Shown: positions 31,460-44,967, counted from the first letter of the stretch. The stretch: 64,000 nt of DNA from Actinomycetota bacterium (GCA_046713235.1 JBKKBZ010000125.1:6573-70572), one strand, 5' to 3'. Made by a program: numbers and translations. Notes: generated from the letters alone by a model not told the origin.

Positions 31460-32416
31460 ATGAGGAGCCGCCGGCGCGGCTGCGTCGCCTTTGTGCTTCT
31501 GGTTTCCCTTGCCTGCACACGAGCGCCGGTCCGGCCGGATGCGGTCCCGAGTGCGACACCGGCCTCCCCATCCCCGAGCCCTGTTTCGTCGCCGTCGCCG
31601 CGGCCGGCCGTCTACGAGGCCGAACGGGCTCTCGAACACATTCGGATCCTCGCCCAAGAGATCGGCGTGCGCGAGGTCTCGAAGCCCGGATACCGCCGGG
31701 CTGCGGACTATGTTGCCGAGCAGTTCGGCGCCACCGGATACCGGGTCGTTCGCCAGACGGTGGCGATCCCGGCCGGCTCCAGCGAGGGGGTTCCGGTTCC
31801 GGCGACGAAGGCCGACAACGTGCTTGCGTACCCGCAGAATTTCGACCCAAGCCGGCCCCACCTAGTCGCCGGAGCCCATCTCGACACCGTCGCGGTCTCG
31901 CCGGGAGCCAACGACAACGGGACGGGTGTGGCCACGATTCTCGAGCTGGCTCGTCTTGCGTCGCTGGAGTCCACCCGGCTTCCGGTGGTTTGGGTGGCCC
32001 TTGCCGGAGAGGAACGTCGCTTCCGGCCCGACGGGGCACTGTTCGGGGCCAGGCACTATCTCAATTCGTTGTCGGCTCCGGAGCGCGCCTCGCTGCGCGG
32101 CATGTTCAATGTGGACATGGTCGGCAACGGACCGATCGTGCTCGTGTGTTCGAGAGGCACCGGGAAGCGGGGTTTCCTCGACCACACGATCGCCTCGGCA
32201 CGCAGGCTCAAGGTGCCCGTCCGCGAGCAGGTGGTGACCCGGTTCTTCAGTGATTCCGGCCCATTCGAAGGCGCCGGAGTGCCCGTCTCGTGGCTGTGGG
32301 CCGGGGAGCATCCGAGCGTGCACACTCCTCAGGATGTCCTCGGGGTGATCCGTATCGCCGACCTGGAGCGGTTCGGCCGTGTCGGCTGGGAGGCGCTACG
32401 CACCTTCCGCGGGTAG
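31460..32416 (+). CDS. M28-family zinc peptidase lipoprotein
   Basis: Signal peptide with a lipobox (LLVSLAC). M28 motifs are present (GAHLDTV, NDNGTGVA, the glutamate region EERRF, DMVG). Pro/Ser-rich linker after the lipobox. Confidence 0.7.
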   Translation: MRSRRRGCVAFVLLVSLACTRAPVRPDAVPSATPASPSPSPVSSPSPRPAVYEAERALEHIRILAQEIGVREVSKPGYRRAADYVAEQFGATGYRVVRQTVAIPAGSSEGVPVPATKADNVLAYPQNFDPSRPHLVAGAHLDTVAVSPGANDNGTGVATILELARLASLESTRLPVVWVALAGEERRFRPDGALFGARHYLNSLSAPERASLRGMFNVDMVGNGPIVLVCSRGTGKRGFLDHTIASARRLKVPVREQVVTRFFSDSGPFEGAGVPVSWLWAGEHPSVHTPQDVLGVIRIADLERFGRVGWEALRTFRG

Positions 32417-33236
32417 CGTTTGGCGATCGCGCTATCATCGTCCTGTCTTGGCTAGTTCCTTTCTCGAGCGCGTCGTCGCCGCACGCCGGGACGACGCCGA
32501 ACGACGCCGTATGGGCGGCGCGCTGGAGCTTGCGCGCGAAGCTGCCGCTGCAGCAGGAGAACCACGCGACTTCGCCGGGGTGATCGGTCGTCCCGGGATC
32601 TCTCTCATTGCCGAGATCAAGCGCGCCTCCCCGTCGGCGGGAGACATCGCCTCGGATGCGCGGCCTGCCCTGCTCGCGAAGTCGTATGAGTTGGGCGGTG
32701 CCTCGGCCCTCAGCGTGCTCACCGAGCCGGAGCATTTTCACGGATCGCTAGAGGACCTGCGCGCCGCGCGCGAAGCGGTCAGGATTCCGGCTCTCCGCAA
32801 GGATTTCCTCTGCGACCCCCTCCATCTGTGGGAGGCTCGGGCGGCCGGCGCCGACGCTGTGCTGCTCATCGTCGCCGCCCTTTCGATGGCCGAGCTCGAT
32901 GCGCTTCTCGACGTTGCAACGTCGATCGGGTTGGGCGTGCTCGTCGAGGCCCATACCGAGGAAGAGGTGGACCGGGCGTTAGAGGTGAATGCCGGAGTCA
33001 TCGGGATCAACACACGAAACCTCGCGACGTTGGAGGTGGATCCCAACGTGGCGCGTCGTCTGCGGCCACGTCTTCCCGAGGGGGTCCTTGCGGTTGCCGA
33101 GAGTGGGGTGTCGACGCGACAGGACGTTCGAGCACTGGAAGCGCTGGGGTTCGATGCGGTGCTCGTGGGCGAGTCACTGATGCGCTCGGACGATCCCCGA
33201 GCCAAGGTGCGCGAGCTTCTCGGGGATCGAGACTAG
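32379..33236 (+). CDS. trpC: Indole-3-glycerol phosphate synthase TrpC (start possibly TTG at 32448)
   Basis: The IGPS core is present (IAEIKRASPSAGDI...). The ORF-track ATG overlaps the upstream gene by 38 nt. A TTG at 32448 gives a shorter, plausible N-terminus. Confidence 0.82.
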   Translation: MSAGRRYAPSAGSVWRSRYHRPVLASSFLERVVAARRDDAERRRMGGALELAREAAAAAGEPRDFAGVIGRPGISLIAEIKRASPSAGDIASDARPALLAKSYELGGASALSVLTEPEHFHGSLEDLRAAREAVRIPALRKDFLCDPLHLWEARAAGADAVLLIVAALSMAELDALLDVATSIGLGVLVEAHTEEEVDRALEVNAGVIGINTRNLATLEVDPNVARRLRPRLPEGVLAVAESGVSTRQDVRALEALGFDAVLVGESLMRSDDPRAKVRELLGDRD

Positions 33237-34969
33237 TGGGCTCTACGGCGGAATGGGTCAGGGCGGCGGCGGCAGACGATGTGCCCGACGGCGGTGCGAA
33301 GCTCTTCCGGTACCTCGACAAGCGGATCGCGCTTTTCAAGACGCCTCGGGGAATTTTCGCGACCGACAACCGCTGCCCGCACGAGGGCTATGCGCTTGTG
33401 CAAGGTACGGTGAAAGACGGGGTCCTCACCTGCGCATGGCACAACTGGAAGTTCGAGCTGGCCGGCGGCTCCTGCATTTTCGGAGGAGAAAACGTCAGGA
33501 CCTATCCGGTCGAGTTGCGGGGCGGTGATATTTGGGTGGACATCGCCGACCCGCCGGCCGAAGAGATCCAGCCGGCGCTTTTCGCGAGCCTCCTGGAGGC
33601 GATGGGTGAGGTCGATATCGGCCGGCTCGCGCGCGACACCATGCGGCTGCAGAGAATCGGCACTCCGATTGCAGAGGTCGTGCGCCAAGGGGTTCATTTC
33701 GGCGCGCCGCGCCTCGAGTATGGGTGGAACCATTCGCTGGCCACGCTTGCAGACTGTCTCAATATCGCCGCGATGCTCGGCGGGCCGCTCGATTCGCTGC
33801 CGGTAGTCCAAGGCCTCTCGGTCGTCTCCGAGACCGAGGTTCGCCGTCCGCCGCGTCCGCGTCCCGACCCCGTCGACCCGGTCGCAACCTACGGTTCGAC
33901 GGATGATGCTCTGCGTGCGTATCCGGGGCTGGTCGATGACGAGCGCGCGGATGAAGCCGAGGCGCTGCTTCGCGGGCTCATCCTTGCGGGGGTAGAGGCG
34001 GAGCGCATCAGGCATGCGCTCCTGTCGGCCATCACCGACCATTTCCTGTCTTACGGCCACCCCATCATCTATTGCCAGAAAGCGTTTGAGCTCCTCGATC
34101 GAATCGGGTGGGAGGAGGCGGATACGGTTCTGGGTCCGCTGGTCCCCAACATGACCTTGGCGACGCGGTACGACGTCCTGCCGTACATGGCCCGCTTTCT
34201 TCGGGAATGGCGCTCGGCAAAGCCGGATCTCACCGCACTTCTGAAGCGTGGGCAGGAGTCTGCATTCGATGTGCCGGGCTTCCGGCGGGCCCTGCTGGAT
34301 GGAAGCCCCGAAGAGGCGTTCGCGTCTCTTCACGGCGCACTGGAGGCCGGAGTCCCGGTGCCGCAGATCATCGATGCAACGTCACAAGCGGCTGCCGAGC
34401 GGTTCGCACGTTTCGACATCGATCTCGATGTCGACGACACCAACGAATGGGGGTGGCTGGACGTCACCCACACGCTCACCTATACAGACGCATTGAGGTG
34501 GGCCTGGTCGTCGGATCCCTCTCCGGAAGTCCTTCGGGGACTGTTCCACGCCGCATGGTTCGTCCAGTGGACGGGCCGGCTCGATGCGCGCGATGCCACG
34601 CGCGGACCGAAGCCGTTCGAGAACTCGGACGCCTCGCAGATTCTCGCGGCGGTAAGGTCCCGCGATCCCGATAAGGCCGTGGCGGTGGTACGAGGGTTCT
34701 TGGGGCCTAGGGACGACCTGGAGCGTGCGATGGCTCAGGCGGCCGCGGAAGATCAGCACACGGCGCCGATCATGGTCGCGCACAGTGTGAAGACCTCTCG
34801 CGCGGCGATTGTTGAGTCCCGCGCGCTGGGCGACGGAGCCGAAGGGCGAGAACCGATTGCCGCCGCGGCACGGTTTCTCGCCTCGCCGAAACGGGAGCGC
34901 TTCGTGTACAACGCGACCCTCGAAGCGATCGCATTCGTCCAAGGTCGTGCAAAGGGCGACGATCGGTAG
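33236..34969 (+). CDS. Rieske [2Fe-2S] domain protein fused to a ~450-aa uncharacterised C-terminal domain
   Basis: A GTG at 33236 overlaps the trpC stop as TAGTG. The N-terminal ~100 aa contain CPHEG...(17 aa)...CAWHNWKF, a Rieske ferredoxin-type CxH/CxxH signature. The rest shows no recognisable motif. Confidence 0.6.
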   Translation: MGSTAEWVRAAAADDVPDGGAKLFRYLDKRIALFKTPRGIFATDNRCPHEGYALVQGTVKDGVLTCAWHNWKFELAGGSCIFGGENVRTYPVELRGGDIWVDIADPPAEEIQPALFASLLEAMGEVDIGRLARDTMRLQRIGTPIAEVVRQGVHFGAPRLEYGWNHSLATLADCLNIAAMLGGPLDSLPVVQGLSVVSETEVRRPPRPRPDPVDPVATYGSTDDALRAYPGLVDDERADEAEALLRGLILAGVEAERIRHALLSAITDHFLSYGHPIIYCQKAFELLDRIGWEEADTVLGPLVPNMTLATRYDVLPYMARFLREWRSAKPDLTALLKRGQESAFDVPGFRRALLDGSPEEAFASLHGALEAGVPVPQIIDATSQAAAERFARFDIDLDVDDTNEWGWLDVTHTLTYTDALRWAWSSDPSPEVLRGLFHAAWFVQWTGRLDARDATRGPKPFENSDASQILAAVRSRDPDKAVAVVRGFLGPRDDLERAMAQAAAEDQHTAPIMVAHSVKTSRAAIVESRALGDGAEGREPIAAAARFLASPKRERFVYNATLEAIAFVQGRAKGDDR

Positions 34970-36726: not shown

Positions 36727-37528
36727 GAGCAAGCCGCTTGAGCGGCTCGATGCCGCGTTCCGGCGCGGCCGCGAGACCCACCGCGCCTTGCTGATGCCGT
36801 ATCTGGTCGTGGGTTACCCGGACGACGAAACCTTCGTGCGCATCGCCGCCGCCTGTGCGGCGGAAGCCGACGTCCTAGAGCTCGGGATCCCGTTCTCGGA
36901 CCCGATCATGGACGGACCGGTGATCCAGCGCGCAACGACGAGTGTCTTGGACCGAGGGCTACCGATCGACAAGGCGCTGGGCCTCATCGAGCGCGCGGTC
37001 TCGTCGTCGGGCCTTCCGTCGGTTGTGATGACCTACTACAACATCATCTTTCGTCGCGGTCTCGAGACATTCGCGAAAGAATTGGCCCGCGCAGGAGTAA
37101 CGGGGGCGATTGTGCCGGACCTCCCCGTTGAGGAATCGGCCGGCTGGTGTGAGGCCTGTGCCGGAGCCGGAATCGCGCCGGTGATGATCGCCGCGCCGAC
37201 GTCGACGGCGCCGCGACTTCGCGCGCTGGCGGCGGCCGGCAAGGGGTTCGTGTATGCGGCGTCGACGCTGGGCGTGACGGGAGTCAGGGAGTCGCTGTCG
37301 GAGCGCGCAAGGGAGCTGGTGGCCTCGCTGCGAGCGGTGACCAATACCCCCATAGCCGTCGGCATCGGTGTCTCCACGCCGGCTCACGTAGTGGAGGTTG
37401 CGACCTATGCCGACGGGGTCATAGTCGGCAGCGCCGTCGTCAAGGCGATAGAGGAGAGCACCGACCCGGTACACGCCGTCGGTGAGCTTGTTCGGCGACT
37501 CGCTTTGACGACGAACAAGCCGGATTGA
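36704..37528 (+). CDS. trpA: Tryptophan synthase alpha chain TrpA
   Basis: Overlaps the trpB end. TIM-barrel TrpA motifs are present ([11 protein letters not shown]; [14 protein letters not shown]). Confidence 0.9.
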
Positions 37529-37547
37529 GGTTATTCTTTTGCCTTCG

Positions 37548-37632
37548 GCCGGGGTGGCGGAATGGGATACGCGATGGATTCAAAATCCATTGGGGGCAAC
37601 CTCGTGAGGGTTCGAGTCCCTCCCCCGGCACC
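37548..37632 (+). tRNA. tRNA-Leu (anticodon CAA), class II with long variable arm
   Basis: Manually folded. The acceptor GCCGGGG pairs with CCCCGGC. The anticodon stem ATGGA/TCCAT has loop TTCAAAA. Variable arm GGGG-GCAA-CCTC. T-arm GAGGG-TTCGAGT-CCCTC. Discriminator A followed by CC. Confidence 0.8.
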
Positions 37633-37647
37633 GAGAAGGGAGCACTG

Positions 37648-38631
37648 ATGCGCGCGGTTCTCTGCAAGGAACACGGCTCGCCGGAATCCCTCGTTGTGGA
37701 GGACGTCCCTTCACCGTCGCCCGGACCGAACGGCGTCGTGGTCGAGGTTCGCGCATGCGGCGTGAACTTCCCCGACACGCTGATCATCCAAGGGAAATAC
37801 CAGTTCCAGCCCGACCTTCCCTTCTCACCTGGAGGCGAGGTTGCCGGTGTGGTCAAGGAAGCCGGGGAGATGGTCCACGGCTTCAAGCCCGGCGACCCCG
37901 TGATCGCTTTCACCGGCTGGGGTGGCTTCGCCGAGGAGGTGCTCACCGACCCGTCGCATCTGATGCCGATGCCGGACGGCATGGATTTTGCGACCGCCGC
38001 ATCCTTCGTAATGACCTACGGGACGTCGATGCACGCGCTCGCCGACCGCGCCGACCTGCAACCGGGTGAGACCCTGCTCGTGCTCGGCGCAGCCGGAGGG
38101 GTCGGCCTAGCGGCCGTGGAGATCGGCAAGGCGATGGGGGCACGGGTGATCGCCGCCGCCTCGGACGACGGCAAGCTCGAGTTCTGCCGCGCCCACGGCG
38201 CCGACGCGACGGTGAACTACGAAACCGAGGACCTCAAGCAAAGGGTCAAAGACATGACCGCCGGAGACGGCGCGGACGTGGTGTACGACCCGGTTGGCGG
38301 GCCCTACAGCGAGCCGGCCCTCCGCGCGACCGCGTGGGCGGGGCGCTATCTGGTTGTGGGCTTCGCCTCGGGCGAGATCCCGCGCATCCCGCTGAACCTC
38401 ACGCTGCTGAAAGGGTGCTCCGTCGTCGGTGTGTTCTACGGAGCATTTGCTGCGCGGGACCCGGCGCGCAACGGCGCGAACCTCAAGCGGCTGGTCGGCT
38501 GGTTTTCCGACGCCACCCTCAAGCCACACATCGACGCCACCTATCCGCTCGAGCGCGCAGCCGAAGCGCTCAACGAGGTTCTCGCGCGGCGCGTCCGCGG
38601 GAAGGTCGTGCTGGTCACCGATCCTCGCTGA
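37648..38631 (+). CDS. NADPH:quinone oxidoreductase / zinc-binding alcohol dehydrogenase (MDR) family protein
   Basis: An ATG at 37648 is preceded by the RBS GAAGGGA. GroES-like N-terminus and a Rossmann motif (LVLGAAGGVGLAAVEIGKAMGA). The ORF-track start at 37525 runs through the tRNA and is rejected. Confidence 0.8.
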   Translation: MRAVLCKEHGSPESLVVEDVPSPSPGPNGVVVEVRACGVNFPDTLIIQGKYQFQPDLPFSPGGEVAGVVKEAGEMVHGFKPGDPVIAFTGWGGFAEEVLTDPSHLMPMPDGMDFATAASFVMTYGTSMHALADRADLQPGETLLVLGAAGGVGLAAVEIGKAMGARVIAAASDDGKLEFCRAHGADATVNYETEDLKQRVKDMTAGDGADVVYDPVGGPYSEPALRATAWAGRYLVVGFASGEIPRIPLNLTLLKGCSVVGVFYGAFAARDPARNGANLKRLVGWFSDATLKPHIDATYPLERAAEALNEVLARRVRGKVVLVTDPR

Positions 38632-39196
38632 GTCCGCCGTCAACAGGCAGGTCCTGCTCGTCTACCGTGACGTCGATCGGCGCCGGCTGCTCTGAGTCTC
38701 TCGGCCGGCCGAAGATCCACAGCATCCCTCCGGTTACGAGCAAGGCGACGGCCGGAATGCCGTACGGACGCATGATTCCCGCGGCGTCGAGATTGCGTTC
38801 CCGATCCAAACACTCAAGGCGGCCGGCCTCGTCTGGGCCCTTCGAAGGGAACCGTTTCTCACAGCGGACCTCGGCGAACACGGCCGGACTCCGGGCGTGC
38901 TGATACACCAATCCCAAGCCGTACAGGAGGGGAAAGATGGCGGCAACCGCGAATCCGAGGCCGACGATCCGCCTCGCCGTCCATCGCTTTCGCCGGTACA
39001 CAACTGGATCGTAGCCTGGTACGGGTTCATCGATGATCGTCCGGAACACCCGATACCCACCCGGCCAGACGTCTTGACCTGTTCCGACATGTACGATATA
39101 TTGAACGGCAGGGCTTGGTTTGGTATCTCGACAAGCAATGGGGGGACCAATGAGGGATAAGCGACACCGGCTGACATCGACTGTGCTCCTTCTCAC
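38615..39196 (-). CDS. Hypothetical membrane protein (two predicted TM helices); start uncertain
   Basis: ORF with two hydrophobic segments. Its 5' end overlaps the divergent 39150 gene, so the real start may be internal. Local GC looks lower than the flanks. Confidence 0.3.
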   Translation of the reverse strand: MRRSTVDVSRCRLSLIGPPIACRDTKPSPAVQYIVHVGTGQDVWPGGYRVFRTIIDEPVPGYDPVVYRRKRWTARRIVGLGFAVAAIFPLLYGLGLVYQHARSPAVFAEVRCEKRFPSKGPDEAGRLECLDRERNLDAAGIMRPYGIPAVALLVTGGMLWIFGRPRDSEQPAPIDVTVDEQDLPVDGGLSEDR

Positions 39197-39575
39197 CTTG
39201 CTCGCGACCGCGTTCGTCGTGTTTCAGGCGGCGGGGGGCAATCGGGCCGAGGCTGGGAACGGCTGCGCCAGGCTCTCGTTGAATATCGACCCGCTGGTGG
39301 CACATCCGGGAGACCGGGTGAACATCACCACGGGAGCGTTGAACTGCGGGAGTCAGATCCTGAAGCTGAAGATTCAAACGAAGGTCACCCCTCCGGCGCC
39401 GTGCCGGATCTCGACCTCGAACTCCCGGTTCATGCTCAAGCCGCAGCAGCTCGGCCACTTTAAGATTCAGTTCAAGCCCAAGTGCAAGGGTCAGCACATC
39501 GTCCATTCAGCCGCACAGGATGAGGACACGCTCGACCTTCTGGGAGAAATACAAGGCACTTTCGACGTCGTCTGA
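39150..39575 (+). CDS. Small secreted hypothetical protein (signal peptide, two Cys pairs)
   Basis: An ATG at 39150 is preceded by a GGGGGGA RBS. The N-terminus MRDKRHRLTSTVLLLTLLATAFVVFQAAGG is signal-peptide-like. The mature ~110 aa are beta-rich and lysine-rich with four Cys. The gene is followed by a perfect hairpin. Confidence 0.5.
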   Translation: MRDKRHRLTSTVLLLTLLATAFVVFQAAGGNRAEAGNGCARLSLNIDPLVAHPGDRVNITTGALNCGSQILKLKIQTKVTPPAPCRISTSNSRFMLKPQQLGHFKIQFKPKCKGQHIVHSAAQDEDTLDLLGEIQGTFDVV

Positions 39576-39600
39576 ACCATCCACGCTAGGCCAAGCCCAT

Positions 39601-39629
39601 CACAGACCCGCCCTAGAGGCGGGTCTGTG
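39601..39629 (+). terminator. Intrinsic-terminator-like hairpin: 12-bp perfect stem CACAGACCCGCC/GGCGGGTCTGTG with 5-nt loop
   Basis: The perfect inverted repeat lies 26 nt after the stop of the 39150 ORF. It is followed by GCTTTGCTG. Confidence 0.55.
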
Positions 39630-39695
39630 GCTTTGCTGATCCCGAGCCGCCCGTCGCGCTAGACAAACCTGCCCCGTCGCCCACACACTTCCGTC

Positions 39696-42600
39696 GTGAT
39701 CTGCGAAAGCTGCGGCCGCCCAAACGACGACGACGCCCGGTTCTGCAGCGGGTGCGGCAACCGGCTGGAGCCGGCCGTCTCGGCGCCGGCGCATCCACCG
39801 GGCGAGCTGCGATCCGGCGATCCCCGCCAGATCGCCGGCGGCCGCTACGAAGTCGTGTCCTTCCTGGGAGAAGGCGGCCGCAAGCGCGTCTACCGCGCGA
39901 GCGACATCCGGCTGGACAGGGACGTGGCCGTGGCGATTGTGAAGATGGAGGGCCTCGACGAGCAGGCCCGTCTCCGCGTCGAGCGGGAAGCCCGGGCAAT
40001 GGGCCGCCTCGGCGACCATCCGAACATCGTTACCGTGCACGACATCGGCGATGAAGACGGCCGGCCTTACATCGTCAGCCAGTTCATGGCCGGAGGGTCG
40101 GTCGCCGAGCTGCTCGACCGTTCGGCCGACCGGCGTCTTTCGGTGCCCGAGGCCGGGCGAATTGCACGGGATCTGTGTCTTGCCCTGGAGCACGCGCACG
40201 CACGCGGAGTGGTCCACCGCGACGTGAAACCGGCCAACGTCTGGCTGACCGACGACGGTGCCGTAAAGCTCGGGGACTTCGGTCTGGCTTCGGCGGCCGA
40301 GCAATCGAAGATCACCATCGAAGGCATGATGCTGGGCACGGTCTCCTACATGTCCCCGGAACAGGCTCTCGGCCGGCCGGCCGACGCACGGAGCGACGTT
40401 TACTCTCTGGGAGCCGTTCTCTACGAGATGCTTTGCGGCCGTCCGCCGTTCCTCGGCGACGACGTCGTATCGATCATCTCTCAGCACCTGAACACCGTGC
40501 CCGTCGCCCCCACGTGGCACAACCCCGACGTACCGGCGGCCCTAGAGGAGCTTGTTCTTCGCATGCTGGCCAAGGCACCCGACGACAGACCGGAGTCGGC
40601 CACGAAGGTGCGCGAAGCGCTAGACATCATCTCCGCCGCGACCACGGAGACGCGGATCGACCTCGGCGAAGCCAATCCGCTAGACCGGCTGGCCGGGGGC
40701 ATTTTTGTCGGGCGGGAGCGCGAGATGGAGGAGCTTCGCGCGAGCGTGGACTCTGCGCAGGGCGGTCACGGACGGCTGGTCCTGCTGGTCGGGGAGCCCG
40801 GGATCGGAAAGACGCGAACCGCCGACGAGGTGGCCACCTACGCGCGGCTCCGGGGCATGCAGATCCTCGTCGGACGTTGCTACGAAGGCGAGGGCGCGCC
40901 CGCCTTCTGGCCCTGGGTTCAGGTGATCCGCTCGTACGTCATGGAGCGCGACCCGGCCCTTCTCGCGGGGGAGATGGGGACGGGGGCGGCCGACATCGCC
41001 CAGGTCGTGTCGGAGATTCGCGAACGGCTCCCGGATCTGCCTCCTCCCTTGCAGATGGAGCCGGAACAGGCACGCTTCCGGCTATTCGATTCGGTGACGA
41101 CCTTCCTCAAGAACGCCTCTCGCGGAAGACCGCTGATGCTCGTCCTCGACGACCTTCACTGGGCGGACAAGCCTTCGCTCCTGCTGTTGCAGTTTCTCAC
41201 GCGAGAGCTGCGCACGACGCGCATTCTCGTCATCGGCACCTACCGCGACGTCGAGCTGGGGCGTCACCATCCGCTTGCCCGAACGATCGCCGACCTTGCT
41301 CGCGAGCACGTTGCGGAGCGCGTTTCGCTGAGCGGGCTCGGCTACGACGACGTAGCCCGCTACATCGAGATGACGGCCGGAATCACGCCTCCCAAGTCGC
41401 TGGTGACCGCGGTGCATCGCGAGACGGAGGGCAACCCGTTCTTTCTCGCCGAGGTCGTCAGGCTGCTGGCAAGCGAGGGCCGTCTTCAGCGACCGGACCA
41501 GATCGCGACGTGGAGCGTTACGATTCCTCAAGGCGTCCGGGAAGTCGTCGGTCGCCGGCTCGACCATCTCTCGCCCGAGTGCAACGAGGTCCTCACGGTG
41601 GCTTCTGTGGTTGGGCGAGACTTCACGCTTGCGGTTCTCGAGCGATTGCTCGAGAAGCCGGCGGATCGGCTCCTGGAGCTTCTCGACGAGGCGGTGCAGG
41701 CCCGGCTGGTCACGGAGACCCCCGGCATCGGCGGGGCACGATACCGGTTCGCTCACGCCCTTGTTCGAGAAACGCTGTACGAGGAGCTCAGCGCGGCCAG
41801 GCGACTGCGGCTGCACCGAACAATCGGCGAGGTTCTGGAGGTGCTGTACGCCGAAAATCTCGAGAGGCATCTCGACGAGCTTGCCTATCACTTTTTCGAG
41901 GCCGGCTACGCTGGTGAGGCCGACAAGTCCATCGATTACCTCGTGCGCGCAGGACGCCACTCGGTAGAGCTTCTAGCCTACGAGGAGGCGGCCGGACACT
42001 TCGACCGAGCGCTGCAAGCGCTCGAGCTTTATGAGCAGGTAGACCAGGAGCGGCGCTGTGAGCTCCTGCTGGCCCTCGGGGACGCTCAATGGCGTTCCGG
42101 CGAGATCGTCAAGGCCCGTGCCTCGTGTCAGACGGCGGCATCGATCGCCCGCCCCCTGGGTCGTACCGACCTGATCGCGCGCGCGGCGCTTGGATTCGCC
42201 ATCGGGATGGAGTTCGGACGGGTCGACGAGGAGGCTGTGGCGCTGCTCGACGAGGCTCATCACGCGCTCCAAGACGAGGAATCGACGCTCGCGGTACGGG
42301 TCGCGTCGGCGCTGGCTCGTGCCCTCTTCTTCGAGGAATCGCTGGAGCGGCCGACTGCGCTGGCCCGGCGGGCCGTCGACATCGCGCGGGGCGTCGGCGA
42401 CCCGCTGACGCTTGCCTCAGCCCTCGACACGCTCACCTACCTGGAATGGGGTCCCGACAGCATCGAAGACCGGCTCGTTCGTTCGGTCGAGATGTTGCAT
42501 CTCGCCGAACAGGCCGGCAGCAAAGAGCTGATGCTCGAGGCATACATGGCGCGGATGATCGCCGCGCTGGAGATTGGAGACGTCCAGACCGTCGACCGGT

Positions 42601-44012
42601 CGATCGCGGCCTACTCGGGCATCGCCGAAGAGCTTCGACGGCCCCTCTATCTGCTGTATGCGCTGTCTCGCCGGGCCATGCGCGCCCTGATGTCGGGGCG
42701 GTTCGACGAAGCATTCGATCTCTCCCGGCAGGCTCGCGATCTCGGGAACCGGGCCGGCGAGCCGGATGCCGAGCTCGTGTTCGGGTCGCAATCGTTTTTT
42801 CTCGGCGGCGAACGAGGGGACCGCGAGCTTGTCAAGGAGGCGACCGACGGCTGGGAGGAGTACCTAGGGCGAGTGTCCAAGACGAATCGCATCGCCCACA
42901 CCTGGCTCTGGCTCGGCAAAGTGATGCTGGATGAGGTCGAGTTCGTTCGCGAGCGGTACGAGGCCACGCCGGATGCGGATATCTTCGAATCTCGCCGGGA
43001 CCTTCAGTGGATGGGGGCGATGACGGCGGTCGCGGTGGTCGCGACGGTGCTCGGTGACGCGCGGAGGGCGTCGCTGCTCTACGATCTGCTGCTTCCCTAC
43101 GAGTCGCGGGTGGCCGTCGCCGGTGGTGCGGTGATCTGTCTCGGACCCGTCGCGATGTACCTGGGCGCGCTGGCGCTGACGACGGGCAAGCTCGATGAGT
43201 CCATCCGTCACCTCGAGGCCTCCGAGAAGCTGGCTCAATCCATGCAATCGACGCCGTTCGTCGCGCGAACGCGTCTCTATCTCGCCCGGTCGCTGCTCGC
43301 TCGAGATGCCGGCGAGGACCGGCAGCGGTCGCTGGAGGTCCTCTCGCGGTGTTTGGCCTCGGCGCGAGAGATGGGGATGAGCCGGCTGCTCGAGCAGGCA
43401 CTGGCGGTGCGCCTGGAGGCGCAGGGCCTGTCGTCCACCGACGTCTTGAGTTCGATCGATTCGGTGGCCTCGGCCGTGGAGCGAGAGCGGCCGGATCTCA
43501 GCATCGGCGGCGACGGCACCGTCACGATTCTTTTCACCGATATCGAGAACTCGACCCAACTTACGGAGCAGGTCGGCGACGAGCCCTGGTTACACATGCT
43601 GCGAACCCACAATGGGATCGTTCGCGAGCAGGTTCGTGCTTATCTGGGGAACGAGGTGAAGTCCCTGGGCGACGGGTTCATGATCACATTCTCGGAGCCC
43701 CGGCGCGCGCTGGAATGCGCGGTGGCCGTCCAGCGGCGGCTTTCCGCTCACGGCCGCGAGCATCCGGACGAGGCCATCCGGGTCAGGATCGGGTTGCATA
43801 CCGGTGAAGCAATCGCCGTCGAGGGAGACTTCTACGGCAAGCACGTCAATCTCGCTGCGCGCGTTGCCGGTGCTGCGAACGGGGGCGAGATCCTCATCAC
43901 CGCAGAGACATGGTCGCGACTCGGCGACGAGTTCGAGATCGAGAGCGAACGAACGGTTACCCTCAAGGGCATTACCGGTGAACAGCAGGTTGTCGCCGTC
44001 GCATGGGATTGA
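39696..44012 (+). CDS. Multidomain signalling protein: zinc-ribbon + Ser/Thr protein kinase + STAND/AAA NTPase + TPR repeats + C-terminal class III adenylyl/guanylyl cyclase
   Basis: GTG start. The N-terminus is CESCGRPN...CSGCGN. Kinase motifs are present (VAIVK, HRDVKPAN, DFG, SPE). The ATPase has Walker A GEPGIGKT and Walker B LMLVLDDLHWAD, followed by ~600 aa of TPR/alpha-solenoid. The cyclase domain carries FTDIENST...GDGFMITF...HVNLAARV. Confidence 0.85.
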   Translation: MICESCGRPNDDDARFCSGCGNRLEPAVSAPAHPPGELRSGDPRQIAGGRYEVVSFLGEGGRKRVYRASDIRLDRDVAVAIVKMEGLDEQARLRVEREARAMGRLGDHPNIVTVHDIGDEDGRPYIVSQFMAGGSVAELLDRSADRRLSVPEAGRIARDLCLALEHAHARGVVHRDVKPANVWLTDDGAVKLGDFGLASAAEQSKITIEGMMLGTVSYMSPEQALGRPADARSDVYSLGAVLYEMLCGRPPFLGDDVVSIISQHLNTVPVAPTWHNPDVPAALEELVLRMLAKAPDDRPESATKVREALDIISAATTETRIDLGEANPLDRLAGGIFVGREREMEELRASVDSAQGGHGRLVLLVGEPGIGKTRTADEVATYARLRGMQILVGRCYEGEGAPAFWPWVQVIRSYVMERDPALLAGEMGTGAADIAQVVSEIRERLPDLPPPLQMEPEQARFRLFDSVTTFLKNASRGRPLMLVLDDLHWADKPSLLLLQFLTRELRTTRILVIGTYRDVELGRHHPLARTIADLAREHVAERVSLSGLGYDDVARYIEMTAGITPPKSLVTAVHRETEGNPFFLAEVVRLLASEGRLQRPDQIATWSVTIPQGVREVVGRRLDHLSPECNEVLTVASVVGRDFTLAVLERLLEKPADRLLELLDEAVQARLVTETPGIGGARYRFAHALVRETLYEELSAARRLRLHRTIGEVLEVLYAENLERHLDELAYHFFEAGYAGEADKSIDYLVRAGRHSVELLAYEEAAGHFDRALQALELYEQVDQERRCELLLALGDAQWRSGEIVKARASCQTAASIARPLGRTDLIARAALGFAIGMEFGRVDEEAVALLDEAHHALQDEESTLAVRVASALARALFFEESLERPTALARRAVDIARGVGDPLTLASALDTLTYLEWGPDSIEDRLVRSVEMLHLAEQAGSKELMLEAYMARMIAALEIGDVQTVDRSIAAYSGIAEELRRPLYLLYALSRRAMRALMSGRFDEAFDLSRQARDLGNRAGEPDAELVFGSQSFFLGGERGDRELVKEATDGWEEYLGRVSKTNRIAHTWLWLGKVMLDEVEFVRERYEATPDADIFESRRDLQWMGAMTAVAVVATVLGDARRASLLYDLLLPYESRVAVAGGAVICLGPVAMYLGALALTTGKLDESIRHLEASEKLAQSMQSTPFVARTRLYLARSLLARDAGEDRQRSLEVLSRCLASAREMGMSRLLEQALAVRLEAQGLSSTDVLSSIDSVASAVERERPDLSIGGDGTVTILFTDIENSTQLTEQVGDEPWLHMLRTHNGIVREQVRAYLGNEVKSLGDGFMITFSEPRRALECAVAVQRRLSAHGREHPDEAIRVRIGLHTGEAIAVEGDFYGKHVNLAARVAGAANGGEILITAETWSRLGDEFEIESERTVTLKGITGEQQVVAVAWD

Positions 44013-44067: not shown

Positions 44068-44349
44068 GTGAAGGTTCGTCAAAGGCTGGCTGCTCTCAGC
44101 GGAGAGATTGCCGGGGCGCAGACGAACGCTCGCATTCTCGAAGAGCAGCTTGCCTACCTCGACGAGCTGGCAGAGGACGCGCGGATTCGCGCCCTGGTCT
44201 CGGAGACTCCGCTGGCCCACCGGGAGCACCGGGAGGCCCAAGACGACGCCGACCGCGCGCGCCGTTCGCTCGGCGACGCGCAGGAGCGCGTCGCCGAGCT
44301 CCGGACAGAACAGGATCGTCTGCTCGAGCGCCTTCTCGAATCGGGCTGA
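44068..44349 (+). CDS. Small coiled-coil hypothetical protein
   Basis: 93 aa, heptad-rich and acidic/Arg-rich. GTG start with the RBS GGAGG. Confidence 0.4.
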   Translation: MKVRQRLAALSGEIAGAQTNARILEEQLAYLDELAEDARIRALVSETPLAHREHREAQDDADRARRSLGDAQERVAELRTEQDRLLERLLESG

Positions 44350-44382: not shown

Positions 44383-44967
44383 ATGAGTCATCGCCCCAGG
44401 GTCCTCGTGGCAGAGGACGAGACGATCATCCGCATGGATCTGCGTGAGATGCTCGAGGAAGAGGGATACGAGGTGCTCGAGGCGACCGACGGCGAGGCCG
44501 CCGTTCGCATCGCTCGGGAAGAGCGGCCGGACTTGGTGATCCTAGACATCAAGATGCCCTTGGTCGACGGGCTGTCGGCCGCAGGGGCCATCACCGCCGA
44601 ACGCATCGCGCCGGTGCTCATCCTCACGGCCTACTCTCAGCGGGATCTGGTCGAGCGCGCGTCCGAAGCCGGGGCGATGGGATACCTAGTCAAGCCGTTC
44701 CAGAAACATGACCTCCTGCCGGCGATCGAGATCGTGAAGGGTCGTTATCTGCAGCTCGCGGCCCTCGAAGAGGAGGTCGGCGATCTTACGGAACGGCTCG
44801 AATCGCGGAAGACCATCGACCGGGCAAAGGGGCTCCTGATGGACCGGTATGCCCTCTCTGAGGGCGATGCCTATCGATTCCTGCAGCGTGCCGCCATGGA
44901 ACGCCGGCTCGACATGCGGGATGTGGCGGAGGCCGTCATTCGAGGGACGTTCGAGGCCACGCCTTGA
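44383..44967 (+). CDS. ANTAR-domain response regulator (PdtaR/AmiR-like): REC + ANTAR
   Basis: REC domain with the phospho-acceptor region (LVILDIKMP) and K (YLVKP). The C-terminal ANTAR coiled-coil plus helix reads RKTIDRAKGLLMDRYALSEGDAYRFLQRAAMERRLDMRDVAEAV. Confidence 0.85.
   Translation: MSHRPRVLVAEDETIIRMDLREMLEEEGYEVLEATDGEAAVRIAREERPDLVILDIKMPLVDGLSAAGAITAERIAPVLILTAYSQRDLVERASEAGAMGYLVKPFQKHDLLPAIEIVKGRYLQLAALEEEVGDLTERLESRKTIDRAKGLLMDRYALSEGDAYRFLQRAAMERRLDMRDVAEAVIRGTFEATP

Follow-up and report, generated by a model that had tools for sequence, protein, structure and literature searches.

Background

STAND proteins (signal transduction ATPases with numerous domains) that carry one effector, such as MalT, PknK, the AfsR-type SARPs (Streptomyces antibiotic regulatory proteins) and the Rv0386-type cyclases, are regarded as proximity switches. 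Rv0386, Rv1358 and Rv2488c were reportedly treated as STAND adenylyl cyclases by Zaveri et al. in 2021. Class III cyclases in general are obligate dimers, whose active sites form only at the dimer interface. PknK (Rv3080c) of Mycobacterium tuberculosis is classed as a STAND protein; it self-associates and autophosphorylates, has the response regulators MtrA and PrrA as substrates, and reacts to starvation for carbon and nitrogen (PMC9045387). In this study, we consider a gene of a family that combines two enzymes with a single switch of this kind. It is located in a stretch of 64,000 nucleotides from an Actinomycetota bacterium (GCA_046713235.1, JBKKBZ010000125.1:6573-70572), which is called the window below, and it encodes a protein of 1438 amino acids (aa).

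In this protein, the parts for a MalT-type switch, a kinase and an adenylyl cyclase are all in one chain. We read it as a cytoplasmic MalT-type STAND transducer, in which ligand-gated oligomerization would drive two enzymatic outputs, phosphorylation and cyclic AMP (cAMP), by proximity; we put the probability of this reading at roughly 0.6.

Domain organization of the protein

The gene and its parts are as follows, with positions counted from the first letter of the window.

39696..44012, plus strand: complete gene in a single open reading frame (ORF), 1438 aa, with zinc ribbon, Ser/Thr kinase, STAND NTPase, MalT-like solenoid and class III cyclase
39702..39767, plus strand: single CxxC...CxxC zinc ribbon, aa 3-24 (matched by Pfam Zn_Ribbon_1 at 26 bits, cutoff 25)
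39840..40625, plus strand: Hanks-type Ser/Thr kinase, PknB/StkP-like, aa 49-310 (Pkinase match and PknB/StkP structures)
40704..41267, plus strand: STAND nucleotide-binding domain (NBD), aa 337-524 (AAA_16 match, motifs and alpha/beta fold in the model)
41268..41756, plus strand: helical and winged-helix domains of the STAND module, aa 525-687 (secondary structure of the AlphaFold model, whose residues 202-361 are aa 526-685)
41757..43421, plus strand: all-alpha superhelical sensor solenoid resembling domain III of MalT, aa 688-1242 (AlphaFold model)
43422..43511, plus strand: linker with a conserved ERPDL motif (aa 1264-1268), aa 1243-1272 (phmmer alignment to Ma1120)
43512..44009, plus strand: class III nucleotidyl cyclase catalytic domain, aa 1273-1438 (Guanylate_cyc match and six catalytic residues)

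The gene starts with a GTG codon and runs for 1438 codons, and both the ORF list and the translation contain 0 internal stops. Its GC content at the three codon positions (0.73/0.46/0.80) is the same as that of clear real genes nearby, namely trpA, trpB and the response regulator-ANTAR (RR-ANTAR) gene, and an identical 1438-aa protein is present in a public protein collection (P0001). The single reading frame described in the first-pass annotation, which had been made from the DNA alone, is therefore intact. The motifs quoted there for the kinase, the P-loop, the Walker B site and the cyclase metal site all lie at the expected positions, and the Pfam search that it proposed as a check recovers the kinase, the STAND module and the cyclase. 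The matches along the protein are Zn_Ribbon_1, Pkinase, AAA_16, Guanylate_cyc and, weakly, TPR_2; a helix-turn-helix (HTH) domain is matched by Pfam nowhere in the 1438 aa.

The four cysteines of the zinc ribbon (C3, C6, C17 and C20) are all present. Ahead of the kinase, where the window protein has this single ribbon, most relatives carry a double one (Pfam DZR), among them that of Mycobacterium gastri and one from a putative archaeon (L044, see below).

The kinase scores 159.9 bits against Pkinase (PF00069, aa 51-301, E = 1e-46, cutoff 31.7), and the nearest solved structures are those of PknB and StkP (E about 1e-56). The motifs HRDVKPAN (174-181), DFG (194-196) and SPE (220-222) are located, and the catalytic residues are in place: the beta3 Lys K83, the alphaC Glu E98, D176, N181 and D194. 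Both the profile score and the catalytic residues thus identify a Hanks-type Ser/Thr kinase, complete as had been claimed. In the family, H174, R175, D176, K178 and N181 are invariant, and D194, S204 and T207 are at least 90% conserved; the catalytic residues of the kinase and the STAND module as a whole are invariant or at least 90% conserved across 25-36 full-length relatives. The third glycine of the Gly-rich loop is replaced by Lys63, which is itself conserved in the family. From these residues the kinase looks catalytically competent, with S204 and T207 as candidate activation-loop sites.

The AAA_16 match (aa 337-513, E = 5e-29) contains a Walker A motif (G366EPGIGKT373), a Walker B motif (L482VLDD486) and a sensor-I Arg (R517 in T515YRD518), all of which are invariant in the family. 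These are followed by a GxP-type motif (G579NPFF) and by His687 in FAHAL; G579, N580, P581 and H687 are again invariant. H687 would be the ADP-contacting histidine of the winged-helix domain, that is, the histidine of the MHD position, an equation that we assume from the STAND literature.

An AlphaFold model was built for the monomer from residues 325-1438, with an alignment of 36 sequences. It has a mean predicted local distance difference test (pLDDT) score of 87 and contains, in order, an alpha/beta NBD, a helical domain, a winged helix, the solenoid, a short linker and an alpha/beta cyclase, so that the parts from the NBD to the cyclase follow each other in one model, as the suggested structure prediction was to show. 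Since a sequence search of the STAND-plus-solenoid region against the PDB gave no match, a fold search was needed; for the STAND part, Foldseek retrieves a STAND-TPR protein (6mfv), Avs3 and Apaf-1. The protein therefore has the motifs of a STAND ATPase (Walker A, a Walker B of the hhhhDD type and the sensor-I Arg) as well as its layout, a tripartite nucleotide-oligomerization domain (NOD) of NBD, helical and winged-helix domains, followed by a repeat sensor. We assume that it belongs near the 'SWACOS'/MalT clades, a placement taken from fold matches and not from a phylogeny.

The solenoid is uninterrupted and all-helical over about 555 aa in the model, near the 600 aa or so first estimated; a weak TPR_2 match at aa 789-818 is below the curated cutoff. 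It is the least conserved part of the protein: the identity of relatives to the window protein is 0.33-0.44 in the solenoid, compared with 0.73 in the NBD, 0.66 in the kinase and 0.53 in the cyclase. A variable solenoid on a conserved switch fits a sensor role.

The cyclase domain matches Guanylate_cyc over aa 1274-1429 (E = 2.5e-22), and its motifs are found at 1280-1283 (FTDI), 1322-1326 (KSLGD) and 1378-1389 (DFYGKHVNLAAR). All six catalytic residues are present, namely D1282 and D1326 for the metal, K1322 and D1378 for the substrate, and N1385 and R1389 for the transition state. Their spacing is canonical, the Lys being 4 residues before the second Asp, with 7 residues from D to N and 4 from N to R. 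The residues were assigned by alignment to Ma1120 (K101, D157, A164, R168), and the assignment also leans on the numbering of Rv1625c. Both the profile and fold and the six residues place the domain in class III, and the description of it as intact holds. Of the solved structures, that of Ma1120, an active adenylyl cyclase, comes closest, and the fold is nearer to it than to the Pycsar cUMP and cCMP synthases. The phmmer alignment with full-length Ma1120 (4wp3) begins inside the linker, at the N-terminal extension of Ma1120; in this linker, the family has P1266 without exception and conserves D1267 and L1268 to at least 90%. The cyclase looks catalytically competent, and the K1322/D1378 pair predicts that it is ATP-specific.

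At aa 1381-1385 (nt 43836-43850), the family splits into G[KR]HVN, which has the canonical Asn as in the window protein, and G[KR]NVI, in which the Asn comes two positions earlier, as it does in Ma1120. The second pattern, with Ile in place of the transition-state Asn, is found in about half of the relatives and looks like a covarying shift of the catalytic Asn. Because Ma1120 has Ala at this position and is still an active adenylyl cyclase (PMC4215837), the Ile/Asn variation in the relatives is no argument for inactivity.

Distribution and modularity of the family

In the protein databases, 7711 proteins match the window protein at E<=1e-10, and the best 120 of these were inspected. All but one have a query coverage of 96-100%, with identities of 45-57%; they are mostly 1390-1520 aa long, have the same Pfam set, and are annotated at the source as 'class 3 adenylate cyclase' or 'protein kinase'. 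Close relatives of the window protein are lacking, and its top identity is about 55-56%. A scan of one genome per species yielded at least 577 stretches encoding relatives, and among the best 80 loci, which were inspected, 44 are full-length. Full-length loci occur in Solirubrobacterales and other Thermoleophilia, Chloroflexota including Dehalococcoidia, Binatia, Myxococcota, 'delta proteobacteria', Acidimicrobiia and Acidobacteriota. Two of the hosts are cultured, Mycobacterium gastri DSM 43505 (1478 aa, with the architecture confirmed by Pfam) and Mycolicibacterium hodleri (1477 aa). Several genomes have more than one copy, and the neighbor-joining tree of the family is discordant with taxonomy.

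The joining of a kinase and a cyclase on one STAND scaffold had been considered unusual. In fact, the architecture is very common, as the best 120 matches and 44 of the best 80 loci show, and soil bacteria commonly have it. The first-pass annotation had also said that its proposal would fall if this architecture were both widespread and already characterized; it is widespread, and full-text literature searches returned no paper on a bacterial kinase-STAND-cyclase protein, although mention in comparative-genomic surveys is possible. The family recombines known modules; its members are plentiful in the databases and apparently uncharacterized.

One full-length copy comes from a metagenome-assembled genome (MAG) labeled 'Methanobacteriota archaeon' (L044, JADFQH010000001.1). 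In the tree, its sister is a copy from Chloroflexi (L043), so that it probably reflects a mis-binned bacterial contig or inter-domain transfer.

Many loci match the window protein only over aa ~330-1240. They contain the NOD-plus-solenoid core, 38-59% identical, with other heads and tails, identified by Pfam:

L052, and L068 from its N-terminal sequence only: core with an OmpR-type winged helix
L070: core with a SARP head (Trans_reg_C plus BTAD)
L054, and L060 from sequence only: core with a C-terminal cyclase and nothing N-terminal
L028, and L027 and L064 from sequence only: core with a kinase and no cyclase
L051: core with an unassigned C-terminal extension

The reuse of the core with only a kinase, only a cyclase, an OmpR-type domain or a SARP head suggests a scaffold that activates whatever effector is attached to it. 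In a set of 1.84 billion proteins, the solenoid alone retrieves 2956 representative clusters (E<=1e-30), mostly of 1000-1250 aa. A few matches are giants of 1800-3260 aa with two to four solenoid copies (P0122-P0128, P0147, P0223 and P0260), which may be tandem fusions of STAND units.

Partner genes in other genomes

Clustering of the flanking ORFs finds synteny only within Solirubrobacterales, with genes for a membrane protein and for universal-stress-protein-like, CydB-like and Zn-peptidase-like proteins. Two further kinds of link were missed by the filters of this clustering and come from annotated contigs and from direct inspection of the mycobacterial loci. First, a CRP-family regulator with a cyclic nucleoside monophosphate (cNMP)-binding domain (cNMP_binding plus HTH_Crp_2) is encoded directly downstream, on the same strand, in three loci:

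L081, 12428-13048: CRP-family gene after a 75-bp gap
L082, 12395-13048: CRP-family gene abutting or overlapping the stop codon
L083, 10461-11120: CRP-family gene abutting or overlapping the stop codon

In the neighbor-joining tree, the window protein is sister to L082 and L083. Second, one to three genes for DegV proteins, which bind fatty acids, lie directly upstream on the same strand in a Conexibacteraceae genome (L017), an actinomycete (L022), M. gastri (L023) and M. hodleri (L033). Three of the four loci also have a linked gene for a 1090-aa protein that joins a major facilitator superfamily (MFS) part, a cNMP-binding domain and a patatin phospholipase; it is upstream in L022 and L023 and downstream in L017. 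The DegV and MFS-cNMP-patatin regions are as follows.

L023: 3488-7789
L022: 1703-7889
L017: 7117-7971 and 12509-15355
L033: 7049-7969

The trio of DegV, MFS-cNMP-patatin and kinase-STAND-cyclase proteins suggests a lipid-cAMP circuit. A cNMP-binding match is also found just upstream in a Chloroflexota locus (L032). Two other annotated loci and most of the genome loci have no link to a cNMP receptor or DegV, and the linkage is clade-specific. The conserved partners are always a cyclic-nucleotide receptor or a lipid-binding protein, and never a toxin or defense gene.

Proposed mechanism

In the rest state, the NOD would hold ADP, with the winged-helix His687 on the nucleotide, and the solenoid would keep the protein closed and monomeric. 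The cyclase domains would then be apart, possibly aided by the ERPDL linker, the counterpart of the N-terminal extension in Ma1120. A cytoplasmic ligand would bind the variable solenoid, in the manner of maltotriose on MalT, and exchange of ADP for ATP would be followed by oligomerization. The oligomer would pair the C-terminal cyclase domains, and since class III active sites exist only at the dimer interface, this step would start cAMP synthesis. It would also pair the N-terminal kinases, which would phosphorylate each other in the activation loop (S204/T207) and then their substrates. The cAMP would be read by cNMP-binding proteins, which may be the CRP-family regulator in the closest clade and a receptor encoded elsewhere in the genome of the window organism. 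The mechanism draws on the STAND biology of MalT, Apaf-1 and Avs.

Several points weigh against this mechanism. Its support is wholly computational: the gating by a ligand, the oligomeric state, the targets of the kinase and the nucleotide specificity are all inferred, and the AlphaFold model is a monomer, which is silent on assembly. An autoinhibitory role of the ERPDL segment is an assumption that draws on structural work on Ma1120. The kinase might regulate the cyclase in cis instead of being a parallel output, and the mechanism gives the zinc ribbon no role. In addition, probes for CRP and cNMP domains found no cNMP-binding gene in the 64-kb window, and linkage to a cNMP receptor is present in only ~7 of 49 full-length loci, which are not independent.

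A bolder version of the transducer, which we consider rather unlikely, is a coincidence device in a single protein. One STAND oligomer would start phosphorylation and cAMP synthesis together, and both outputs would meet at common targets: the kinase could, for instance, phosphorylate the adjacent CRP-type or cNMP-patatin receptor. The mycobacterial DegV could deliver a lipid signal. If true, bacteria would wire second-messenger and phospho-signaling together on a MalT-type scaffold in a way not described before. The family is in any case a handle on how STAND oligomerization activates a class III cyclase and on whether phosphorylation and cAMP act together or in a hierarchy. Its members are plentiful in soil Actinomycetota, Chloroflexota, Binatia and Myxococcota and can be reached in cultured mycobacteria, and its clade-specific partners, CRP, DegV and MFS-cNMP-patatin, offer concrete hypotheses.

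Genomic neighborhood in the window

The gene order in the window is murC, murB, ftsZ, sepF, a divIVA-like gene, ileS, dnaE, his genes, trpE/C/B/A, the studied gene, the PdtaR-like RR-ANTAR gene, a Liv-type ATP-binding cassette (ABC) transporter, polA and an rpsA-like gene; some of these names were checked with Pfam and the rest come from N-terminal sequences. From this order, the window appears to be core actinobacterial chromosome. The closest relatives of its IleS are in Actinomycetota MAGs (65-73%), followed by Thermoleophilia and Gaiellales (54-62%), which makes the source a lineage of Actinomycetota that is not in culture. Pfam identifies Rieske, 4HBT, TrpB, TrpA, zinc alcohol dehydrogenase (Zn-ADH), RR-ANTAR and Peripla_BP_6 domains in ten flanking proteins. 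The features next to the gene are listed here.

39120-39575, upstream of the gene: small secreted ORF, 151 aa, with a signal peptide
39600-39630, plus strand: perfect 13-bp G+C-rich hairpin with a 5-nt loop and no T-tract (RNA fold of 39576-39695)
44068-44349, plus strand: coiled-coil ORF, 93 aa, without a Pfam family, directly upstream of the PdtaR-like gene
44383-44967: RR-ANTAR (PdtaR-like) gene, 370 bp downstream of the studied gene; the database copy of its protein has a different called start (186 aa)

The first-pass annotation had placed the gene in a lower-GC patch. The GC content of the gene is 0.664, above the window mean of 0.6535 (standard deviation 0.011, windows of the same size), and the lower GC is confined to the 1 kb on its 5' side (38632-39695, 0.6175). 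A lower-GC patch or an island of horizontal transfer is thereby ruled out for the gene itself.

The hairpin lies in the 120-bp gap between the small upstream ORF and the gene. It is like the I-shaped terminators that are common in Actinobacteria and is the probable 5' limit of the transcription unit. A scan with consensus promoters and terminators gave nothing useful at the gene boundaries and did not call this hairpin.

The secreted ORF, the coiled-coil ORF and the PdtaR-like gene, which had been grouped with the studied gene into a self-contained signaling module, do exist, but they do not form a unit with it. When nine window neighbors were compared with the 80 homologue loci by tblastn, the conservation check that had been suggested for this grouping, no recurrent partner was found. 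Three related MAGs (L086-L088, PdtaR 76-79% identical) have trpB, trpA, a variable region of 4-5 kb, an ORF of 95-98 aa, pdtaR, Peripla_BP_6 and Liv ABC genes; in none of the three is a kinase-STAND-cyclase gene present in the trp-to-liv interval. Since the flanks are conserved without the gene, the gene, the Zn-ADH and the small signal-peptide ORF lie in a variable slot. In the interval from trpA to the small ORF (window 37525-44012, L086-L088 5300-9600), the MAGs have genes for either an ABC exporter plus an NHL/SGL protein or a number of small enzymes. The studied gene is thus an accessory signaling gene in a variable slot of the core chromosome, ordinary genome content for this window, and is neither in an operon with pdtaR nor part of an island.

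The coiled-coil ORF is 59-61% identical to the small ORFs of the MAGs (L086 9662-9958, L087 9661-9957, L088 9652-9939) and therefore belongs with pdtaR. These ORFs of 93-98 aa upstream of pdtaR share an invariant RIRALVSETPLA core and may encode an undescribed partner of PdtaR. In M. tuberculosis, pdtaR (Rv1626) lies beside the class III cyclase gene cya (Rv1625c), with cydABDC just upstream; the cyclase gene beside a pdtaR-like gene in the window echoes this arrangement, as does the gene upstream of the Solirubrobacterales homologues that resembles cydB by its sequence, and this may be a coincidence.

A 713-aa ORF at 32828-34969 (plus strand) has a Rieske [2Fe-2S] domain at aa 142-237 and overlaps, in another frame, the end of a trpC-like ORF (32379-33236). 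At its place, the related MAGs have Ala_racemase_N/D-ser_dehydrat and FAD_binding_4/ALO genes.

Alternative explanations

The two enzymes need not be parallel outputs. The kinase could be an input, which by phosphorylating the linker or the STAND module in cis would gate the cyclase, so that cAMP would be the sole output, or, in reverse, the cyclase domain could serve as a nucleotide-binding regulator of the kinase. Both enzymes are kept with invariant catalytic residues across many full-length relatives, and PknK-type kinases autophosphorylate; since cyclase-only and kinase-only cores exist as well, their combination may add regulation and not a second pathway. However, the enzymes are at opposite ends of the 1438-aa protein, about 960 residues apart, and no conserved cluster of Ser/Thr was noticed in the linkers, where no systematic search was made. 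Proximity-induced activation, moreover, explains both activities without cross-talk. We regard this explanation as possible, with the odds well against it.

It is much harder to see the protein as a transcription-linked growth regulator of the PknK type, which would act mainly by phosphorylating transcription factors or response regulators, its PdtaR-like neighbor perhaps among them, with the cyclase as an accessory. The precedent is the kinase-STAND protein PknK with its substrates MtrA and PrrA (PMC9045387), together with the RR-ANTAR gene 370 bp downstream in the window. However, related genomes keep pdtaR and the small upstream ORF at that position without the studied gene, no RR-ANTAR gene is found beside the homologues, where weak receiver-domain matches occur in only 5 of 80 loci, and the cyclase is conserved as expected for an active enzyme. 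This makes the explanation very improbable.

The least probable explanation, which the first-pass annotation had raised as a defense-type STAND system with an enzymatic effector, is an Avs-like anti-phage or abortive-infection protein, whose solenoid would sense a phage protein and whose cyclase, with or without the kinase, would be the effector, as in Pycsar or kinase-based systems. Although Foldseek retrieves Avs3 and Apaf-1 for the STAND part, the PADLOC kinase models PD-T4-6, mad6 and PglW match the kinase domain strongly, some genomes have multiple paralogues and the tree is discordant with taxonomy, we reject it: the PADLOC matches cover only the generic kinase domain (aa ~41-320) and none is on the STAND module, solenoid or cyclase; full-length relatives are on 0 of 72,556 plasmids (PLSDB); the gene is in the core chromosome, between trp and pdtaR-polA genes, and the Solirubrobacterales copies are in stable synteny with cydB (named from sequence alone) and a universal-stress-protein-like gene; full-length identities of 45-57% across phyla mean slow evolution for an immune sensor; where partners are conserved, they are CRP regulators and DegV and no toxins that cNMPs activate; and the cyclase is of the ATP type and nearer to Ma1120 than to the Pycsar synthases. 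No defense model beyond generic domains, no defense island and no linked effector were found for the gene, for which no systematic defense score was computed.

Comparison with known systems

The transducer with two enzymatic outputs that we prefer can be set beside five described systems; it would operate in the manner of MalT or PknK, to which an Ma1120-like cyclase has been joined. Among curated family models, a kinase, a cyclase and an ATPase/repeat protein are named together by one alone, TIGR03903 ('TOMM system kinase/cyclase fusion protein'). The window protein scores 293.9 bits against it, in three stretches, where the cutoff is 705.75, and Pfam finds no TOMM-type domain in the ten flanking proteins; membership in this family is rejected on both score and gene context. 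In the TIGR03903 family, the cyclase-homology domain presumably comes directly after the kinase, whereas in the window protein the cyclase is C-terminal.

Like the window protein, Rv0386, Rv1358 and Rv2488c join a class III cyclase to a STAND module of the AAA_16 type and helical repeats. However, the Rv0386-type proteins have the cyclase at the N-terminus and a LuxR-type HTH at the C-terminus, whereas the window protein has the kinase at the N-terminus, the cyclase at the C-terminus and no HTH match in Pfam, and it is thus not of the Rv0386 type. The substrate residues of Rv0386 are non-canonical (Gln/Asn), whereas those of the window protein are the canonical Lys/Asp pair. Ma1120 of Mycobacterium avium (PDB 4wp3) is a stand-alone cyclase of about 200 aa, whereas the window cyclase is the C-terminal domain of a fusion; at the transition-state position, Ma1120 has Ala and the window protein the canonical Asn1385.

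PknK shares with the window protein an N-terminal Hanks kinase, an AAA_16-type STAND module and helical repeats. It has no C-terminal cyclase, unlike the window protein, and we know of no N-terminal zinc ribbon in PknK. With MalT of Escherichia coli, the sensor identity is only 11%, so that the ligand cannot be deduced from that of MalT. The effector of MalT is a C-terminal LuxR DNA-binding domain, whereas the effectors of the window protein are a kinase and a cyclase.

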